Source of the DNA: a virus
Taxonomy: Duplodnaviria > Heunggongvirae > Uroviricota > Caudoviricetes
IMG/VR virus record: IMGVR_UViG_2563366944_000002
Location: 1-20,260 of that record
Direction: 5' to 3' (one strand)
DNA length: 20,260 bases
Each line of letters begins with the position of its first letter. The first letter of the stretch is position 1. Positions 1-16,712 of this stretch are shown piece by piece. The notes beneath the pieces were generated by a model, which saw only the letters and a list, made by a program, of their open reading frames with translations, ran no database searches and was not told where the DNA came from. A program made the position numbers and the translations under genes.

Positions 1-2189
1 ACCGCCGTTATCTGAAAATACCCCGGCGTCAGCTCAATGGTGGCGGGTTTTGCAGGCGCGTTAATCCGGAAGGTGGTGGTCGCAGGTTCGCCCTGCTGGC
101 CGTAGCTGTTAATGGCCCGCACCGTCAGGGTGTATTCCCCCAGCGGCAGACCACTGAAACGGTGCTCCGTGTCTGCGGTGATGGCGGTGCTCACCAGACG
201 GCTGTCTTCTCCGCTTCCGCTGGTCAGACGCAGACTGAAGCGCACACCCTTCACCACCCGCGGCGTGTCCCATTTCGCCTGTGCCAGATACTGACCGTCA
301 GCTGCACTCACCTCCACCGTCAGGTGCTGCACTGCCGGTGGGATAACGCTGTTCAGGGTGCCTGACTGCGGCTCAAAGCTGGCCCCGTTATCCACGATGG
401 CTTCTTTTTCCGGTACGTGCTGCACCGCCGTGATGGCGAAGGTGCCGTCCGTGTTTTCCCGGATGGAGACACAGCGGAACAGGCGACGGCGCAGTGACGG
501 CAGGGAGAGTCCCCACACCCCGTATGTCTCCACACCATCAGGCAGGGTACTGACCTGTATCCGGTCCGGCGCGGGGTGTTCGGTGATGTCCACACTCACC
601 GGCTTACCACTGCCGTTAATCAGGTTCACCGTGGCGGCACCGGTCTCCGGAAGTGTCACTTCACGGTCCAGCGTCAGGGTGCGGGTGGCAGCATCAATGG
701 ACAGGACACGTCCGCCGGTCAGGGTCCCGGCATAGTCGTTATCACAGATTTCAATGATGTCACCGGGTGTGTGCCGCAGCCCCTGAGACCCGAGCGTGAA
801 ATCCACCGTCTGCGTTTCCAGCAGTTCGGTCTTTATCACCCACAGTCCGGCACGGTGGGCCTGACCGCGGCTGGTACAGCCGAACGCGTCCATCTTCAGC
901 AGGTTGCGTCCGTAGCGCAGTATGGCTTCCGGGTCTTCCACCAGTTCCGTGGAGGTCTGCCAGCCGTTCTGCGGGTCGGTGTAATTCACCTCCACTGCCG
1001 TGTGCCGGTCCTTCAGGGCACTGGAGCTGTAGCGGAAACCCACGCCGTTATCATCCACCACCACATCGCTGTTGGTGTACGGCCACACCACATCCGACGG
1101 ACGGTCCTGAACGAACGTCAGCGTCTGGCCGTTCCATACCGGCATACAGCGCATCGCAGAGCAGAAATCACTGAGAACGTCCCACGCCTTACGCTGTTGT
1201 GCCAGGTACGCATTAAAGGTCATCCGCGGCTCGGTCCCCCCGAAACCATCCGGGACCGTCTGGTCGCAGTACTGCCCGATGGCATACAGCGCCCACTTGT
1301 CCACATCCGCCGCCCCCAGACGTTTTCCCATGCCGTAGCGCGGGTGAGTCAGCATGTCCCACAGACACCAGGCCGGGTTGTTGCTGTATGCCGGTTTCAG
1401 GCTGCCGTCCCAGATACCACTGTACGTGCGTTTTTCCGGGTCATAGTTTGACGGCACCTGGATGATGCGACCGCGGATATGGTAGTTCACCGTCATCTGC
1501 TGGCCGCCGAACTGCTCCGCATCCACCTGCAGCCCCACAATGGCCGTGTTCGGGTAGCACTGTTTCACATCGATGATTTCGGTGTATGACGACCACAGCG
1601 TCTTATTCTGCAGCTGGTCCGTGGTGCTGTCCGCCGTCTCCCTGACCATCCGGATGTTAAAGGGCCGGGGCGGCAGATTATCCAGAATCACCGAGGCCAG
1701 GAACTGCGAGGTGGTCTTGCCGTTAATGGTGACATCCTTTTCCGTCACCCAGCGGCCATTACGCTGTAACTGAATCAGAATCCGGACAGAGGAAGGATTA
1801 CGGTCGCCCTTTGACGTGGTCTGCACCAGTGACTGCACCCCGAAGGTAACCCGCAGGCGGTCAATGTTCGCGGACGTAATGGTGCGCGTCACCGGTTTTG
1901 CCTTCGTCACTTCCACGCCCAGTCCGGTTTCAGCTCCGGAGGACTCAAAGCCTTCCGGTGGTGTCTGCTCCTGCTCCCCGGCACGCCAGACCGCAGTCAC
2001 ACCGTGTATCACGGGATTACCGTCCGTGTCCGTCAGCGGGGTTTTGTTCACCAGAATACTCTGCAGTCCCTTCACCGGACCTTCTATCGGTCCCTCACCA
2101 ATCGCATCAATCACACTCATCATCTGCGTGGATTTGAGATTATCCTTCGCCTCACGAGGCGTGTGTGCCTTACCGCCACCTTTTCCCAT
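1..2189 (-). CDS. J: Host-specificity / central tail fibre protein J, N-terminal ~729 codons; the gene continues past the left edge of the window
   Basis: Not in the ORF track because no stop lies in the window. My hand translation of the minus strand from the ATG at 2189-2187 gives MGKGGGKAHTPREAKDNLKSTQMMSVIDAIGEGPIEGPV...FESSGAETGLG...TSANIDRLRVTFGVQ...TSKGDRNPSSVRIL...NLPPRPFNIRM...DSTTDQLQNKTLWSSYTEIIDVKQ, which matches the lambda J N-terminus as I remember it. A GGGGAAGG Shine-Dalgarno sits just upstream. Confidence 0.9.
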   Translation of the reverse strand, partial: MGKGGGKAHTPREAKDNLKSTQMMSVIDAIGEGPIEGPVKGLQSILVNKTPLTDTDGNPVIHGVTAVWRAGEQEQTPPEGFESSGAETGLGVEVTKAKPVTRTITSANIDRLRVTFGVQSLVQTTSKGDRNPSSVRILIQLQRNGRWVTEKDVTINGKTTSQFLASVILDNLPPRPFNIRMVRETADSTTDQLQNKTLWSSYTEIIDVKQCYPNTAIVGLQVDAEQFGGQQMTVNYHIRGRIIQVPSNYDPEKRTYSGIWDGSLKPAYSNNPAWCLWDMLTHPRYGMGKRLGAADVDKWALYAIGQYCDQTVPDGFGGTEPRMTFNAYLAQQRKAWDVLSDFCSAMRCMPVWNGQTLTFVQDRPSDVVWPYTNSDVVVDDNGVGFRYSSSALKDRHTAVEVNYTDPQNGWQTSTELVEDPEAILRYGRNLLKMDAFGCTSRGQAHRAGLWVIKTELLETQTVDFTLGSQGLRHTPGDIIEICDNDYAGTLTGGRVLSIDAATRTLTLDREVTLPETGAATVNLINGSGKPVSVDITEHPAPDRIQVSTLPDGVETYGVWGLSLPSLRRRLFRCVSIRENTDGTFAITAVQHVPEKEAIVDNGASFEPQSGTLNSVIPPAVQHLTVEVSAADGQYLAQAKWDTPRVVKGVRFSLRLTSGSGEDSRLVSTAITADTEHRFSGLPLGEYTLTVRAINSYGQQGEPATTTFRINAPAKPATIELTPGYFQITA

Positions 2190-2293
2190 ACAGCCTTCCC
2201 CTGAATAAATTAACCGCCACTTGCCATTCCGTACAGAAGTCGGATATCCTTCGCCCGAAAAGCATGAAACACATTTCTGCCATGCTAAAGAGA

Positions 2294-2327
2294 AACCCCG
2301 GTATCAGCAGATACCGGGGTTTTCTTT
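2294..2327. terminator. Perfect 12-bp palindromic hairpin with T-rich flanks on both strands (bidirectional terminator-like element) in the I-J gap
   Basis: AACCCCGGTATC-AGCA-GATACCGGGGTT at 2294-2321, followed by TTCTTTC on the plus strand and by TTTCTCTTT on the minus strand. Confidence 0.45.
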
Positions 2328-2394
2328 CATGCCCACCGATAATCCTGTTGGTTAAAACCGGTAATGGCATAAAAATTCTGAATATCTTCACATT

Positions 2395-2422
2395 TTCACA
2401 AACTGACTGTGGCGCGTATAAT
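2395..2422 (+). promoter_or_regulatory. Sigma70-like promoter facing away from J, antisense to the late operon
   Basis: -35 TTCACA at 2395-2400, 16-bp spacer, perfect -10 TATAAT at 2417-2422. Consensus reading only. Confidence 0.45.
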
Positions 2423-2428
2423 TTCTCT

Positions 2429-2525
2429 GCGTTAATTTTTTTGTCGTGATATAAGAATAATTCCTTACACTTAATCTTCGTAACTCTCCCGCAGTTCCTG
2501 TCCGCGATCACTGCGGGATTTTTTT
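2429..2525 (+). ncRNA. Candidate small RNA of about 95-100 nt, from the predicted promoter to the intrinsic terminator; no ORF or RBS inside
   Basis: Predicted start ~7 nt after the -10. The body is AU-rich (TTAATTTTTTTGTCGTGATATAAGAATAATTCC) and ends in an 8-bp GC-rich stem plus T7. No ATG or GTG with an RBS in the interval. Confidence 0.4.
2487..2525 (+). terminator. Rho-independent terminator, plus orientation
   Basis: Stem TCCCGCAG (2487-2494) pairs with CTGCGGGA (2511-2518), followed by TTTTTTT (2519-2525). The opposite strand has no T tract after the stem. Confidence 0.6.
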
Positions 2526-2532
2526 ATTCTTT

Positions 2533-3213
2533 TTACCCCTGCCGCCCGATAACCACGACCTTTCCGCCCCCGCCTTCATCACGGGTGCTGATGTCCTGGG
2601 ATATACGGCGGGAGCCAACCAGCATTTCCCCGTAAGGCACCGGCATCGGGTTCCCCTGGGCAATCATGTTATCCAGTGAGGAAAAGTACGTGTTCTGTCT
2701 GCCGTTATCCGTTGCGCGGTAATCCGGTGTTTTTGCCTTCGGGGCCAGCATCTGGGCCACTCCGCCCAGTATCATGCTGGCACCCAGTGAAAACAGCATC
2801 GTGGTGGCAGAAAAACCACCGGCACTCAGGGCTGTACCCCATAACGCCATCGAGCCTCCGGCCGTGAAGAAAGAGCCCACGATGGCTGCCGCCCCCAGCA
2901 CAATCTGCAGTCCACCCTTTCCGGCCCCGGCCAGTCGCGGCACAATGTGGATGACCGTTCCCTCACCCAGCTGTTCGTGAAGACGGGCGTACACCGCCTC
3001 CGGTGCCGTGTCATCACCGGCAATACGTATCTGGTACCAGCCTTCGTTCATCTGACGGCGAAAGCCCGGCATCTGCATCGACAGGGCGCGAATGGCTTCC
3101 GCTGCCGTGTTCACATACAGGCTGAGGCGGCGGCCAAATCGTTGCAAATCCCCGTGAAGGCAGATGCGTGCCAGTGGCGGTGACGCCAGACAGAATGCGT
3201 TCGTCGTTGCCAT
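2533..3213 (-). CDS. I: Tail assembly protein I
   Basis: 226-aa ORF MATTNAFCLASPPLARICLHGDLQRFGRR... collinear with lambda gpI (remembered MAATHTLPLASPGMARICLYGDLQRFGRR...); position between K and J. Confidence 0.9.
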   Translation of the reverse strand: MATTNAFCLASPPLARICLHGDLQRFGRRLSLYVNTAAEAIRALSMQMPGFRRQMNEGWYQIRIAGDDTAPEAVYARLHEQLGEGTVIHIVPRLAGAGKGGLQIVLGAAAIVGSFFTAGGSMALWGTALSAGGFSATTMLFSLGASMILGGVAQMLAPKAKTPDYRATDNGRQNTYFSSLDNMIAQGNPMPVPYGEMLVGSRRISQDISTRDEGGGGKVVVIGRQG

Positions 3214-4887: not shown

Positions 4888-7568
4888 CCACCGCTCCCTG
4901 ATAACATACCGCCATCACGCAACTGCAGCCGGAGTTCATCCTGTGCCCCCTTGCGGGCCATCTCATACACCGCTTTCATCAGCTGCGGCCCTGCCCGCCC
5001 GTTGGGGCCGTCGTTCTGAATCACCACGTGATTGTTCTGATTAAAATTAATGCCTTCCGCCCGCCGCATCTGCGCCGGACTTCCGGCACCGCCGACATAA
5101 CCACCTTCCGCATAGCCCCGCATCAGGCGGTACAGATTGCCGACACCAATCCGGCTGGTCGCCTCCTTCGTGAAGACAAACTCCCCGCGATGAACAATCC
5201 CCGCAGGTTCATATTTGCCGCCGGTTCCCGTAAATCCTCCGGTCGCGAAATGGAATTTCGCCGCAGCTGCCTGAATGGCTGTACCGCCTGACGCGGATGC
5301 GCCGCCACCAACAGCCCCGCCAATAGCGCTGCCGATACTCCCGACAATCCCCACCATTGCCTGCTTAAGCAGAATTTCTGTCATCATGGACAGCACGGAG
5401 CGGGTGAAGCTGCGCCAGTTCTGCTCACTGCCGGTCAGCATCGCCGCCATATTCTGTGCAATACCATCAAAGGTCTGCGTGGCAGCACTTTTTACCTGCG
5501 ACATACTGTCCGTGGCACTCTCTTCCCACTCACTCCAGCCGGACCTGAGGCCTGCCATCCAGTTCCCGCGAAGCAGGTCTTCAGCCGCCCAGGTCTTTTT
5601 CTGCTCTGACATGACGTTATTCAGCGCCAGCGGATTATCGCCATACTGTTCCTTCAGGCGCTGTTCCGTGGCTTCCCGTTCTGCCTGCCGGTCAGTCAGC
5701 CCCCGGATTTTCGCATCAATGGCGGCCCGTTTTGCCCGTTGCTGCTGTGCGAATTTATCCGCCTGCTGCGCCAGCGCGTTCAGGCGCTCCTGATACGTAA
5801 CCTTGTCGCCAAGTGCAGCCAGCTGGCGTTTGTACTCCAGCGTCTCATCTTTATGCGCCAGCAGGGATTTCTCCTGTGCAGACAGCTGGCGTTTGTACTC
5901 CAGCGTCTCATCTTTATGCGCCAGCAGGGATTTCTCCTGTGCAGACAGCTGGCGACGTTGCGCCGCCTCCTCCAGTACCGCGAACTGACTCTCCGCCTTC
6001 CACAAATCCCGGCGCTGCTGGCTGATTTTCTCATTTGCTCCGGCATGCTTCTCCAGCGTCCGGAGTTCTGCCTGAAGCGTCAGCAGGGCAGCATGAGCAC
6101 TGTCTTCCTGACGATCGCCCGCAGACACCTTCACGCCGGACTGTTTCGCCTTTTTCAGCGTCGCTTCATAGTCCTTTTTCGCCGCCGCCATCAGCGTGTT
6201 GTAATCTGCCTGCAGAATTTTCCCGTCCTTCAGTGCCTTGTTCAGTTCTTCCTGACGGGCGGTATATTTCTCCAGCGGCGTCTGCAGGCGTTCATAAGCC
6301 TTCTGCGCCTCTTCGGTATATTTCAGCCGTGATGCCTCAGACTCGGCCCAGTCCTTTGCTGCCATCTCTCTGGCCTTTTCAAGATCGGCCTGCAACGTGG
6401 CGGCTGAAAGCCCAAGTTGCGCATTCGCTCTGTCCTCCCATGCTCCCCGGAGATTGGCAAGAAATGCGGATGTTTTACCGCGCCGGTGGCTCCGGCTCTG
6501 ATACCACTGCCATTTTTTGTCCGCCTCATCAAAAGCCTTTTCTGCTTTCTCCAGCATTTCCCGGGCAGTGTCCGGGCGACCAATATCCAGCACCGAATCC
6601 CACATGGATTTGAATGCCCGTGCTGTCCTGTCTGCCCAGGTCTCCAGCGTGCCCATGTTCTCTTTCAGGCGGCGGGTCTGGTCATCAAACCCTTTCGTTG
6701 CGGCCTCGTTCGCCGCCTGCAATGCCCCGGTTTCATCGCCGGAACGCTGCAACTGAGCAACATACGTAATCTGCTCCGCCGTCACGTTATGGAACTGCTT
6801 CGCCATCGCAATCAGCCCCGACGTCGGGTCAGTGGTCAGTTTTCCGAAAGCCTCTGCAACCTTGTCCACCTCCACACCGGATGCAGAAGCAAAACGCGCG
6901 ACACTCTGGTTGATGGCATCAAACTGTTCACCACCACGCACACCGGCATTCACCATGGCTGCCAGTGACTCACTCGCCTGGTTAAACGTCAGCCCTGCGG
7001 CCTGTCCGGCTCTGGAGAGCGTCAGCATGCGATCGGCAGTCAGTCCGGACTGATTACCGGAAAGAACCAGGGTTTTATTAAACGCTGAAAGCGTGGAATC
7101 TCCCTGGTACCAGGCGTACACCAGCGCACCTGTCGCCACCGCCAGCGAGGTGACCCCGACCATCGGCAGGGTGATCGCACCGGCAAGCCCCCTGAACATG
7201 GGGATCATCCCGCCGAAGGAGTCCTTCACCTGACCGCCCTGTTGCAGCAGGATCAGCCAGGGATTCTGACCACCGGCAAGCTGCGTGGCGATATCCGTAA
7301 ACTGTGCGGGCAGGGTTCGCATGGCCGCTTTATACTGCCCGACGGAAATCCCTGCTTTTTGTGCAGCCAGCGCCTGGCGGCTCAGGCCCTGCTCAACAGC
7401 AGCGGCCTGTTTCTTAAAAGACTGGCTGACACGCCCGGCCATCAAATCCGCAAGGTCACTGGTTTCACCCAGTTCTTTCTTTACCCGTGCAGCCTCTTCA
7501 GAAAAACGGGTTGAATCCAGTGTAAGAACAGCTGTCAGATCGGCAAAATTACCCGCCATAGCGTACAC
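4884..7568 (-). CDS. H: Tail tape-measure protein H
   Basis: 894-aa ORF, Ala/Gln/Lys-rich with long helical stretches, a Gly-rich hydrophobic C-terminal segment and the C-terminal region typical of gpH; position between G-T and M. Confidence 0.9.
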   Translation of the reverse strand: MYAMAGNFADLTAVLTLDSTRFSEEAARVKKELGETSDLADLMAGRVSQSFKKQAAAVEQGLSRQALAAQKAGISVGQYKAAMRTLPAQFTDIATQLAGGQNPWLILLQQGGQVKDSFGGMIPMFRGLAGAITLPMVGVTSLAVATGALVYAWYQGDSTLSAFNKTLVLSGNQSGLTADRMLTLSRAGQAAGLTFNQASESLAAMVNAGVRGGEQFDAINQSVARFASASGVEVDKVAEAFGKLTTDPTSGLIAMAKQFHNVTAEQITYVAQLQRSGDETGALQAANEAATKGFDDQTRRLKENMGTLETWADRTARAFKSMWDSVLDIGRPDTAREMLEKAEKAFDEADKKWQWYQSRSHRRGKTSAFLANLRGAWEDRANAQLGLSAATLQADLEKAREMAAKDWAESEASRLKYTEEAQKAYERLQTPLEKYTARQEELNKALKDGKILQADYNTLMAAAKKDYEATLKKAKQSGVKVSAGDRQEDSAHAALLTLQAELRTLEKHAGANEKISQQRRDLWKAESQFAVLEEAAQRRQLSAQEKSLLAHKDETLEYKRQLSAQEKSLLAHKDETLEYKRQLAALGDKVTYQERLNALAQQADKFAQQQRAKRAAIDAKIRGLTDRQAEREATEQRLKEQYGDNPLALNNVMSEQKKTWAAEDLLRGNWMAGLRSGWSEWEESATDSMSQVKSAATQTFDGIAQNMAAMLTGSEQNWRSFTRSVLSMMTEILLKQAMVGIVGSIGSAIGGAVGGGASASGGTAIQAAAAKFHFATGGFTGTGGKYEPAGIVHRGEFVFTKEATSRIGVGNLYRLMRGYAEGGYVGGAGSPAQMRRAEGINFNQNNHVVIQNDGPNGRAGPQLMKAVYEMARKGAQDELRLQLRDGGMLSGSGG
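5821..5946. repeat. Exact tandem duplication, 2 x 63 bp, in frame inside the tape-measure gene
   Basis: 5821-5883 and 5884-5946 are identical (AGCTGGCGTTTGTACTCCAGCGTCTCATCTTTATGCGCCAGCAGGGATTTCTCCTGTGCAGAC). In the protein this repeats QLSAQEKSLLAHKDETLEYKR twice. Confidence 0.9.
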
Positions 7569-14616: not shown

Positions 14617-16712
14617 GGATTATCTTCCGCACGCTCCGTCCGCAGTTTTTTCTTCCGGCGACGGCGTTTTTCTGCCCCGGCCGTCAGTTCCGGGGATACC
14701 GTTTCACCAGAACGCTCCTGCGGGAAGACGAGCCACGTTTCCCGCTGTGCCCAGTCCGGTGCGGAGGGCCAGCGGATCTTTTCGTAACCATGCAGAACGG
14801 CAAGCGCATCCGCATAAACCAGCAGGTCAAACGCCTCGTTAGCTCCCCTGCCCGGTTTTCGCCATTTTCCGTCACTGCCGCGCTCTTCATAGGTCAGCTC
14901 ATCGTAAAACCATCGCCCCAGCCAGTCGGGAAAGTGGATATAGTTCGGCCCTGGTGTGTCACGCCACAGGGCATTATTTACACGGTCCTTAAACGCATCC
15001 GTCTGAACCAGCCACAGCGCGACATCGCCACTGGCTCTGGCACGGCGGGCACTTCTGCCGGTATTATCCGGGAAGGTACGGTTAATCAGCCTGTCACGGC
15101 GAAGTCCATCCCCCTTGAACAGAAACACCCTGTTGCCCAGTCCGTCACTCCGGCAACGACGCCAGAAACGATAGGCGTTATCTGTCACCCCGGCTTCCCC
15201 TCCCGTATCCACCGCCATGGCCATCAGACGCATGCGCACATCCGGATCAGAAGCCAGCGGCCATGTTTTATGGAACACATCCGTCAGCAACAAATCCCAG
15301 TCCTCCGGATATGCCGCCGGATCAACCGGCAGACTTTCACCGTTGGGACTGCAGCGCAGTGAATGCCGGATGTTATAGCGATCAACAATCCAGCGTTCCC
15401 CCTGCTCTCCGTATCCGGTGATCTGCACAACAAAACGGCGATTTTTACCGCCCTGTACGTCAACCGTTGCCTCAATAAAACGCACACCATCCGGCACAGA
15501 TCGCCGGGGAAACGGCTCGGCACGCTGTTCAAGCAGTTCACTTTTACGCTGTTCCGTGGCTGAACGGGGCAGATAGGGGCGTCCGATATCGGTGTTCACC
15601 ACCGCTTTCAGGGTCTCTTCACTGCCGGTTCGCTCATACTCTTCTTCTGCCGCCAGCAGTTTAAAAATCAGTTGTTCCCAGGTCTGAAACGCCGCAGCCG
15701 GCCCCTCCATCCAGAATGACGCAATCCGGGAATTTCGTGGCGTTCCGGTGATACTGCCGTCCGCCACCGCCCGTTCACCTTCACGAAGCCAGATCCCTTT
15801 GTTATTCAGTTCGCGTTTCTGCTCAGGGGCAATCAGCCCGCGACAATGCGGACACATCAGACGGGCAGCCTGACCGGCAGCCACAAAATCCGGGTTATTC
15901 CGGTATCCGGTCATGTTATCCATCACCGGCTGAAAATATTCCCCGCAGTGCGGACACGGCCAGTACCACCGGCGGCGGTCTCCCCGGTTATACAGTGACA
16001 GGATCCCCGTTGTTGGCGGTGCCTCATGTGCGCCGCCACAGCGCCATTTGGTGTCAGTGATATCCCGCCCCGGCGAACTCTCGACCAGGGTCATCCCCGA
16101 GGACATAAAGGTGGTGGTACGCTTTGATGCCAGGGTGAAGGCATCCCCTTCCCCGTCCACGTTTTCAGGGAAACGGTCATAATCCGTCAGCGCCACACGA
16201 CGGTAATCCGAAGAAGAAAATACAGTGATCGACGGCCAGCCAATCTTCAGGAAGGAGCCGTCAAGAAACATTTTATCGTGGACGTTGTTGTCATTACGGG
16301 AAGGACTGAGACGCTTACTGACCTCCGGGCTGTGACGAAACGTTCTGGAAAGACGCGTTCTGGAGTGTTCCCGCGCCTTCGTCTCGGTCATTTGCACCAC
16401 CAGCATATCCGCCGGATCACAGATGATGCCGTACACAATCCAGCCGTCAATCAGCCCTTCGGTTTTCCCGGTTCGCGCAGGTCCCACAAACACCACCGCG
16501 TCATATTCACGGGCTGATAATGTATTAATAGGGTCAATCATATAGGGCGTCAGCGATGACTCCCACGGACCGGAAGTATTGGCTCCCCGTGGTACCCGCA
16601 TATAACGCCTGATGGCTTCCGCTACTGGTAACCGGCTGGGCGGGCGAAACAGCGAGGCCACTTCGCGCCAGATATCGGATGCGCGGCTATGGCTCTCGTT
16701 CACCTGATTCAC
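14589..16712 (-). CDS. A: Terminase large subunit (gpA family)
   Basis: 707-aa ORF with a Walker-A-like VFVGPARTGKT and overall gpA-like architecture; start overlaps the small-subunit stop (ATGA). Confidence 0.9.
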   Translation of the reverse strand: MNQVNESHSRASDIWREVASLFRPPSRLPVAEAIRRYMRVPRGANTSGPWESSLTPYMIDPINTLSAREYDAVVFVGPARTGKTEGLIDGWIVYGIICDPADMLVVQMTETKAREHSRTRLSRTFRHSPEVSKRLSPSRNDNNVHDKMFLDGSFLKIGWPSITVFSSSDYRRVALTDYDRFPENVDGEGDAFTLASKRTTTFMSSGMTLVESSPGRDITDTKWRCGGAHEAPPTTGILSLYNRGDRRRWYWPCPHCGEYFQPVMDNMTGYRNNPDFVAAGQAARLMCPHCRGLIAPEQKRELNNKGIWLREGERAVADGSITGTPRNSRIASFWMEGPAAAFQTWEQLIFKLLAAEEEYERTGSEETLKAVVNTDIGRPYLPRSATEQRKSELLEQRAEPFPRRSVPDGVRFIEATVDVQGGKNRRFVVQITGYGEQGERWIVDRYNIRHSLRCSPNGESLPVDPAAYPEDWDLLLTDVFHKTWPLASDPDVRMRLMAMAVDTGGEAGVTDNAYRFWRRCRSDGLGNRVFLFKGDGLRRDRLINRTFPDNTGRSARRARASGDVALWLVQTDAFKDRVNNALWRDTPGPNYIHFPDWLGRWFYDELTYEERGSDGKWRKPGRGANEAFDLLVYADALAVLHGYEKIRWPSAPDWAQRETWLVFPQERSGETVSPELTAGAEKRRRRKKKLRTERAEDNPWITSGGWL

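Follow-up and report, generated by a model that had tools for sequence, protein, structure and literature searches.

What lies between tail genes I and J is the question raised by a lambdoid prophage in a virus sequence of 20,260 nt (IMG/VR virus record IMGVR_UViG_2563366944_000002, positions 1 to 20,260; Caudoviricetes), here called the window, which is the whole stretch of DNA that was analyzed. The late operon occupies the minus strand of the window, and I and J are separated by 343 bp (2190 to 2532). The original prediction, made from the letters of the sequence, was that this gap encodes an Hfq-type prophage small RNA (sRNA) of about 95 to 100 nt that is antisense to the late operon. We found support for it in homology to PasB and EcOnc22 to EcOnc24, RNAs reported from other Escherichia coli prophages, and we consider it probable that the gap carries a noncoding "moron," i.e., a self-contained Hfq-type sRNA gene of the PasB family.

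The transcription unit and its homologues

The unit, which lies on the plus strand, consists of the following parts.

2377 to 2392, plus strand: dyad TCTGA-ATATCT-TCACA upstream of the core promoter, with its center about -44.5 relative to the predicted start; candidate binding site of a dimeric regulator of the host
2395 to 2422, plus strand: predicted sigma-70 promoter TTCACA-N16-TATAAT, 11 of 12 positions matching the consensus
2429 to 2525, plus strand: predicted primary transcript of about 97 nt, matched by covariance model R1; PasB/EcOnc22-family sRNA, window allele (extraintestinal pathogenic E. coli [ExPEC] type)
2436 to 2442, plus strand: internal U7 run near the 5' end; a U-run occurs in every allele, with varying length
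2451 to 2467, plus strand: A-rich stretch of A-R-N-like type, AUAAGAAUAAU, and then UCCUUA, similar to an anti-Shine-Dalgarno sequence; the type is kept across alleles
2471 to 2481, plus strand: most highly conserved single-stranded block, UUAAUCUUCGU, likely the seed; ATCTT is invariant in the allele set derived by BLAST
2487 to 2525, plus strand: Rho-independent terminator with a 9-bp stem, a 14-nt loop, and U7, ending 7 nt ahead of the I stop codon

Hfq-dependent sRNAs that act in trans are usually laid out in this way. The near-consensus promoter, which had been predicted to point antisense to the late operon, proved to be the best match in the window. Sigma-70-like sites with at least 9 of 12 matching positions were no more numerous there than in shuffled sequences (12 observed and 12.7 in shuffles), so the weight rests on the quality and position of the site at 2395 to 2422 and not on the number of sites. 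The strong terminator also stands, with a stem of 9 bp in place of the predicted 8 bp: its arms (2487 to 2495 and 2510 to 2518, 9 nt each) are 100% complementary, T7 follows at 2519 to 2525, and the fold has a free energy of -15.7 kcal/mol (z score of -4.0). The interval in between had been expected to be free of open reading frames (ORFs) over about 95 to 100 nt, and we indeed found 97 nt (2429 to 2525) with no ATG and with a longest start-to-stop run of two codons. The minimum free energy fold of the window RNA has a z score of -2.3, and its stability comes mostly from the terminator. A shared 5' hairpin, sought with RNAalifold among 49 distinct alleles, was not found; the terminator stem is the sole common structure, and the body is single stranded.

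Evidence for the nature of this unit comes from PasB (pathogenicity-associated sRNA B), an 83-nt sRNA of enteropathogenic E. coli (EPEC) O127:H6 E2348/69 that is encoded in prophage PP6 (NC_011601.1, 1466343 to 1466261, minus strand; PMC8550237, table S6). With the end of I at 1466255 and the start of J at 1466496, PasB lies inside the I-J gap of E2348/69, antisense to the late genes. The window unit likewise lies in the I-J gap in antisense orientation, with its U-run ending at 2525, near the I stop codon that begins at 2533. The Northern blot band of PasB is Hfq dependent, with log2 fold changes of -6.8 and -2.4 in delta-hfq (PMC8550237). Besides, PasB ranks 15th in the EPEC network obtained by ligating and sequencing interacting RNAs (RIL-seq) and has 37 Hfq-mediated RNA partners, including tolC, ydbJ, ftsZ, fabR, galE, glk, ler, perB, and bfp genes (PMC8550237). 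Its level is higher in static overnight lysogeny broth (LB) than in Dulbecco's modified Eagle medium (DMEM) (PMC8550237; bioRxiv 10.64898/2026.05.13.724894).

The window unit and PasB are 96% identical in the upstream block (25 of 26 positions), 93% identical from -35 to -10 (26 of 28), and 100% identical in the 3' arm of the terminator and U7, and both have the AUCUUC block and the A-rich stretch. However, in the transcribed part the window allele shares only 67% identity with PasB, the flanks of the seed are not alike (UUAAUCUUCGUAAC in the window and UUGAUCUUCAUUUG in PasB), and the window terminator has a loop longer by 5 nt. The window gap is also longer than that of E2348/69 (343 versus 240 bp), with another upstream hairpin module, and the hosts of the window type are mainly ExPEC-type strains, such as CFT073, S88, CE10, and ATCC 25922. 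The PasB Northern probe matches 2498 to 2520 (minus strand) at 20 of 23 positions, with 0 such matches expected by chance. Furthermore, we built a covariance model, R1, from 13 alleles, none of which belonged to the group of the window allele, and its sole match in the 20-kb window was 2429 to 2525 (plus strand), which covers model positions 1 to 97 at 68.4 bits (E value of 9e-11).

A second set of relatives was found in enterohemorrhagic E. coli (EHEC) O157:H7 Sakai, from which three homologous orphan peaks of Hfq cross-linking with cDNA analysis (CRAC) have been reported on the plus strand, i.e., EcOnc22 (in Sp15), EcOnc23 (Sp14), and EcOnc24 (Sp11) (PMC4104026, table S2). EcOnc22 gives a Northern band of about 85 nt that is destabilized in the delta-hfq strain (PMC4104026). 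In NC_002695.2, the I-J gaps extend over 2902691 to 2902930 (Sp15), 2676622 to 2676861 (Sp14), and 2166672 to 2166911 (Sp11), with I and J on the minus strand, and all three peaks fall within these gaps, antisense to the late genes. The Sakai coordinates of Tree et al. (2014) are offset by about +139 from NC_002695.2, as measured at AgvB1 (1941783 to 1941835 formerly and 1941922 to 1941978 now), and EcOnc coordinates from that paper have to be corrected accordingly when they are placed on NC_002695.2. The peaks very probably lie on the PasB-like body next to I and not on the upstream hairpin. The Sakai gaps have the same dyad and promoter block as the window, as well as the AAUCUUC block and the terminator arms, whereas the transcribed part is 62% identical, the -35 hexamer is poor (TCCGGC), and the -10 hexamer is AATAAT. 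The connection between PasB and EcOnc22 to EcOnc24 appears in neither of the Pas papers (PMC8550237; bioRxiv 10.64898/2026.05.13.724894); we draw it here because coordinates and sequence agree. The kind of RNA is, according to these reports, already known, EcOnc22 to EcOnc24 since 2014 and PasB since 2021, and the window unit is, judged by its sequence, a diverged, very common, and unnamed allele.

We propose that the extra DNA is an sRNA gene inserted between I and the hairpin ahead of J, and that it would be transcribed in the lysogen antisense to the silent late operon. Transcription would start near 2429 from the near-consensus sigma-70 promoter, which lies behind a putative host-regulator dyad, and would end at about 2525 at the 9-bp hairpin and U7. 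The start at 2429 is predicted from the position of the -10 hexamer, and the mature RNA may be nearer 83 to 85 nt, as in the homologues. The product would be a mostly unstructured, AU-rich RNA of about 85 to 97 nt with a U-run, an A-rich stretch, UCCUUA ... UUAAUCUUCGU, and a U-tail. By homology with PasB and EcOnc22, it may bind Hfq, and its AUCUUCRU block may base pair with mRNAs, both host and accessory, in many cases at a start codon or close to one. Work by others on other alleles has established that the RNA is made, that it depends on Hfq, and which RNAs it contacts; for the window allele we infer expression, the exact 5' end, the seed, the targets, and the promoter regulator.

Several details fit an Hfq-bound RNA. 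The A-rich stretch has counterparts in other alleles (AAGAAUAAU, AACAAAAACAAC, and GAAAAAUAAC, followed by CUCCUU or UUCCUU) and might be the contact for the distal face of Hfq, as the ARN motif (PMC4104026) suggests. The U-tail of the terminator is presumably the site for the proximal face. The window unit has the terminator form by which members of the family are recognized, CCCGCAG-loop-CTGCGGGA followed by U7; every allele has the same 3' arm and U7 (100% identity), and the loop varies.

Seed, promoter, and competing explanations

Zhu et al. placed the seed of PasB just upstream of the terminator (bioRxiv 10.64898/2026.05.13.724894). We found that TGAAGA, the complement of UCUUCA in PasB, is present in three of four PasB RIL-seq partner segments, a count that was reached by 4 of 20,000 shuffles; the match lies over the start codon in tolC and just upstream of the Shine-Dalgarno sequence in ydbJ. 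Among the tests on partner segments, this simple motif count was the only one with a significant result. Because ATCTT is invariant and the partner motif is enriched, in accord with Zhu et al., the AUCUUCRU block is probably the seed. The candidate seed of the window allele, AUCUUCGU, has G at the variable base (UCUUCG), which is able to pair with U; at this position only A or G occurs among the alleles, and both pair with U. The target sets of the alleles probably overlap only in part, as the seed flanks differ.

The half-sites of the dyad upstream of the promoter, TCTGA and TCACA, show no variation among all 57 distinct promoter-bearing units sampled, and the 6-nt spacer has five variants. 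The -35 hexamer varies widely among the alleles, and the -10 hexamer takes the form TATAAT, AATAAT, TATCAT, or CATAAT. The invariant dyad is thus probably a binding site of a host regulator, and its constant half-sites with a variable spacer, together with the poor -35 hexamer in expressed alleles (TCCGGC in Sakai), suggest an activator. The dyad core TCTGA-N6-TCACA agrees with the CRP core TGTGA-N6-TCACA at 9 of 10 positions, and by our estimate a core with 9 of 10 matches is expected by chance about once per 20 kb. The center of the dyad, at about -44.5, does not fit the classic class II CRP position of -41.5. A CRP-like activator at the dyad could be entertained only as a hypothesis suggested by the motif; the higher level of PasB in static overnight LB than in DMEM is compatible with CRP, yet not specific to it. 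In any case, the invariant dyad provides a concrete handle on the regulation of PasB-family RNAs.

Some observations weigh against an sRNA gene with the start and the targets described above. RNA-seq coverage puts the 5' end of PasB 15 nt downstream of where its -10 hexamer would predict the start, and the true 5' end may therefore differ from the prediction or arise by processing. The placement of the EcOnc22 to EcOnc24 peaks on the sRNA body depends on the offset of about +139, which comes from the single anchor AgvB1. With only 67% identity in the transcribed part, the targets of the window allele may differ from those of PasB, and predicted duplexes between the window allele and the four PasB partner segments were no better than those of shuffles. 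Even for PasB itself, duplexes of the 30-nt seed region were marginal compared with shuffles (fraction of 0.08 to 0.42), and whole-body duplexes were unrealistically long. Besides, a search of the accessible literature for the window-allele sequence and of sRNA maps of uropathogenic E. coli returned nothing on this allele.

Identity with another known sRNA was also considered. The original prediction could not tell whether the locus corresponds to a known sRNA or is new; none of the RNAs it named (DicF, IpeX, AgvB, and AsxR) fits, and a known family, that of PasB and EcOnc22 to EcOnc24, does. A search of the 20-kb window against Rfam yielded no family at the gathering score and none that is relevant at E values up to 10, including AgvB, AsxR, and DicF; the best subthreshold matches in the gap were unrelated terminator-like families at 15 to 20 bits. 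AgvB, AsxR, DicF, and IpeX were ruled out by position and by the lack of a model match, and the probe sequences of PasA and PasC do not occur in the window.

Three other explanations of the unit were weighed. If the RNA acted mainly in cis, it would be antisense to the I-J late mRNA and would, by convergent transcription, lower J through transcriptional interference or duplex-directed cleavage during leaky or early late transcription, with the trans contacts being secondary. Such a role would suit a gene that is fixed at one site beside the I stop codon in every copy examined and whose product necessarily complements the late transcript in full; lambda has only a hairpin at this site. Nevertheless, the RNA overlaps neither the I stop codon nor the J ribosome-binding site (more than 230 nt away), PasB has its 37 trans partners in RIL-seq, and alleles linked to sodC displace J and keep the RNA part. 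The retention of a short single-stranded block while the body drifts is, moreover, the pattern of a trans-acting seed and not of a cis antisense RNA, which would be complementary with any sequence, and we regard a mainly cis-acting RNA as unlikely. It is quite improbable that the gap is an insulator, in which two terminators and a fortuitous promoter keep stray transcription from the tail genes and the RNA is a by-product bound by Hfq via its U-tail. Terminator-like hairpins do flank the gap in both directions, and the function of PasB has not been elucidated; however, in no fewer than five allele groups and in several lineages of phages, the promoter region and the dyad are better conserved than the body, the single-stranded block is conserved as well, and the units are duplicated in tandem in several phages. 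The 15th rank of PasB in the Hfq interactome of EPEC and the PasB-complementary motif shared by its partner segments also speak against a by-product.

A small protein could be encoded by either of two ORFs in the window, one of 94 amino acids (2165 to 2449, plus strand) and one of 113 amino acids (2170 to 2511, minus strand), and short hypothetical proteins antisense to the sRNA are annotated in some phage records. Neither ORF has a Pfam match, and the PHROGs matches are subthreshold (E values of 0.1 to 0.2); both ORFs cross two terminator hairpins and the promoter, and allele indels of 1, 2, 5, and 6 nt, together with the presence or absence of about 100 bp, leave no conserved frame, so that a coding function is hardly credible. 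A trans-acting, Hfq-type sRNA of the PasB family is the explanation that we prefer.

Composition of the gap and other elements of the window

The neighboring genes and the remaining parts of the gap are as follows.

1 to 2189, minus strand: 5' part of tail tip gene J, with the Pfam domains Ig_J, FNIII-A_GpJ, and Phage-tail_3; the gene continues beyond the window edge
2190 to 2374, no strand assigned: left module of the gap, a mosaic segment that is identical in PPompW-type phages with a different sRNA body
2293 to 2322, no strand assigned: perfect hairpin of 13 bp that lies between J and the sRNA promoter, with T-rich runs on each strand
2533 to 3213, minus strand: tail assembly gene I (Pfam PF06805, Lambda_tail_I); the RefSeq form is shorter, with 582 nt

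The gene ends (I at 2533 and J at 2189, both on the minus strand) are those annotated by RefSeq at the 100%-identical CFT073 locus, where the annotation has nothing between I and J. The corresponding gap of lambda measures 60 bp, between the end of I at 15444 and the start of J at 15505. The GC content is 0.385 to 0.43 inside the window gap versus 0.55 to 0.64 in its flanks, and both the gene ends and the composition bear out the original description of an AT-rich gap of 343 bp compared with about 60 bp in lambda. The locus has all the attributes of a moron, namely, extra DNA relative to lambda (343 versus 60 bp), a promoter and terminator of its own, as predicted from sequence features, and a deviant GC content. 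Comparison of the I-J spacer across related prophages, a check proposed along with the prediction, revealed a shared site, a mosaic gap, and several allele groups. In fact, the left module (2190 to 2374) is 100% identical in PPompW-type phages, which carry a PasB-2 body, and in ASU11 and others whose sRNA allele is not that of the window; recombination appears to have joined the modules at the conserved promoter block.

The second hairpin, which had been noticed as a perfect bidirectional palindrome before J, is real: its arms (2293 to 2305 and 2310 to 2322, 13 nt each) are perfectly complementary around a 4-nt loop, with fold z scores of -6.2 on the plus strand and -5.2 on the minus strand. 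It does not seem to belong to the sRNA unit. The 60-bp I-J gap of lambda has an analogous sense-strand hairpin and T-run (locus L025, 755 to 790), and the window hairpin is best read as the counterpart of this structure just upstream of J. In our view, it belongs to the late operon and may also shield the sRNA promoter from upstream transcription. In alleles with a short gap (loci L018, L005, L017, and L003), a different hairpin is found in the same place, about 70 nt upstream of the promoter block, and it shows a compensatory change from C-G to T-A (ACAGGCACC/GGTGCCTGT versus ACAGGCATC/GATGCCTGT); one allele is intermediate. Ahead of the 13-bp hairpin and T-run lies a weak promoter-like site, TTGCCA-18-TATCCT (2221 to 2250, plus strand, 9 of 12 positions), and 2221 to 2335 (plus strand) might give an RNA of about 75 nt with two hairpins (fold z score of -6.2); this module is missing from most alleles.

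Elsewhere in the window, an 8-bp hairpin with a T-run (17454 to 17432, minus strand) follows the ORFs of the lysis region, and just past it, upstream of the small terminase gene, is a G-rich, cos-like stretch, ACGGGGCGGGCGGCGCGG (about 17385 to 17365). A 14-bp hairpin with a T-rich tail (18648 to 18616, minus strand) lies about 90 nt past the lysozyme stop codon and is followed by a good Shine-Dalgarno sequence with a short hydrophobic ORF and then by an Rz-like gene. The terminator scan also brought out an exact 30-nt direct repeat (5825 to 5854 and 5888 to 5917, plus strand; 63 bp apart) in the tape-measure gene.

Distribution of the family and relation to known systems

A sensitive BLAST search with a 161-bp segment comprising the promoter and the RNA found 4,688 places in 1,846 of 5,426 complete E. 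coli genomes (at most nine in any one genome), as well as 66 phage records, including Stx1a-, Stx2a-, and Stx2c-converting phages, PPompW, PhiR5, PhiR12, and VT1-Sakai. The window allele itself occurs in about 800 of the 5,426 genomes (613 to 633 at an identity of at least 99%), and IMG/VR holds at least 120 loci of the family. In a pattern scan that took one genome from each species, genuine copies turned up only in Escherichia albertii, and the remaining matches were small contaminant contigs or unrelated. This agrees with Zhu et al., who reported that PasB is restricted to Escherichia and Shigella (bioRxiv 10.64898/2026.05.13.724894). The contigs in question are very small pieces of E. coli prophage DNA in Streptomyces flavalbus (L030), Parendozoicomonas haliclonae (L027), and a Clostridiales metagenome-assembled genome (MAG) (L031), which are probably contamination. 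Two matches in Firmicutes (L026 and L029; a Butyricicoccus MAG and Blautia) fit the seed and terminator but have unrelated sequence upstream, and they were dropped.

The 148 units collected comprise 66 distinct sequences and 49 distinct RNA regions. No fewer than five allele groups could be distinguished among them: the window type, that of PasB (to which a 1-nt variant, "PasB-2," belongs), the Sakai type, a type with TATCAT at -10, and a short type. The family has conserved the dyad, the -10 hexamer, GCGUUA at the start, the U-run, the A-rich stretch, (C/U)UCCUU, AAUCUUCRU, the terminator arms, and U7. Since ATCTTC and the terminator arms were required by the pattern scan, they are necessarily invariant in the set it produced; the unconstrained set derived by BLAST (n = 20) showed the same conservation with two exceptions.

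Several phages carry tandem sRNA units in a single I-J gap (L007 at 230 to 653, L035, L046, L069 with units 226 bp apart, L078, and L015). The first unit of L007 has the same TCTGA-N6-TCACA block with another body (…CAACUCCUUAAGG…) and another terminator (CUCCCG…CGGGAGCGUUUUUU). In some Stx2a phages and in E. albertii, sodC, which encodes a Cu/Zn superoxide dismutase, lies in the gap on the sRNA strand (L019 [Stx2_EH2201] at 1 to 601, L033, L031, L032, L103, and L120). In these gaps the dyad is gone and the -10 hexamer is CATCCT, while the sRNA body and terminator are kept; the RNA linked to sodC may be a product of the sodC 3' untranslated region or merely the sodC terminator.

The published picture of PasB is more uniform. 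In the survey by Zhu, Shabalina, and Storz (2026), the 83-nt gene of E2348/69 was the query of a blastn search with a word size of 28 and a query coverage above 75%, and the authors concluded that PasB has few nucleotide differences and the lowest diversity among the Pas sRNAs (bioRxiv 10.64898/2026.05.13.724894). When we ran a word-28 megablast with PasB, it found 956 genomes, all at an identity of at least 90%. The longest exact word common to the window allele and the 83-nt PasB is 25 nt, and with an identity of 67% the window allele would therefore probably be missed by a word-28 survey. Thus, it is a member of the family by homology that almost certainly lies outside the surveyed PasB set, and the published distribution and low diversity of PasB probably reflect search stringency. 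The family is about twice as widespread as the word-28 criterion shows, and a profile-based resurvey could roughly double the count.

A broader view, which we offer tentatively and hold to be possible rather than probable, is that the family is not one gene with point variants but a set of modular cassettes, in which an invariant regulator site, a terminator, and a short seed core are combined with a fast-diverging body. It would comprise at least five groups, tandem duplications, and a sodC-fused form in about one-third of complete E. coli genomes, and the window allele would be the dominant ExPEC form, with partly distinct targets, switched on by a dyad-binding host factor (CRP or a similar dimer). 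If this were true, prophage carriage would be tied to host carbon or stationary-phase signaling.

Three separate sets appear to be one family at one prophage site, i.e., PasB (EPEC, 2021), EcOnc22 to EcOnc24 (EHEC, 2014), and the unnamed allele of CFT073, S88, CE10, ATCC 25922, and about 800 genomes in all. A reading of the sequence by itself seems to have recovered a real sRNA gene that standard annotation omits, as RefSeq has none in the gap and Rfam has no model. The kind of molecule is unchanged by this, a conventional Hfq-type prophage sRNA. It resembles AgvB and AsxR (Rfam RF02702 and RF02703), which are likewise prophage encoded, short, and Hfq binding, with a conserved 3' part, a variable 5' part, and a "moron" position in the lysogen; in contrast to the window unit, they lie 3' of PR' near the stx and lysis region, measure 51 to 60 nt, and have another conserved 3' part of about 42 nt. 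It also resembles the protein-coding morons of lambdoid phages (Juhala et al., 2000, cited in PMC4104026) in being extra DNA among the late genes that has a promoter and a terminator to itself, is lower in GC content, and would be expressed from the prophage. Unlike such morons, of which sodC, in the same gap and on the same strand in some Stx2 phages, is an example, the window unit most likely carries a noncoding RNA as its cargo.

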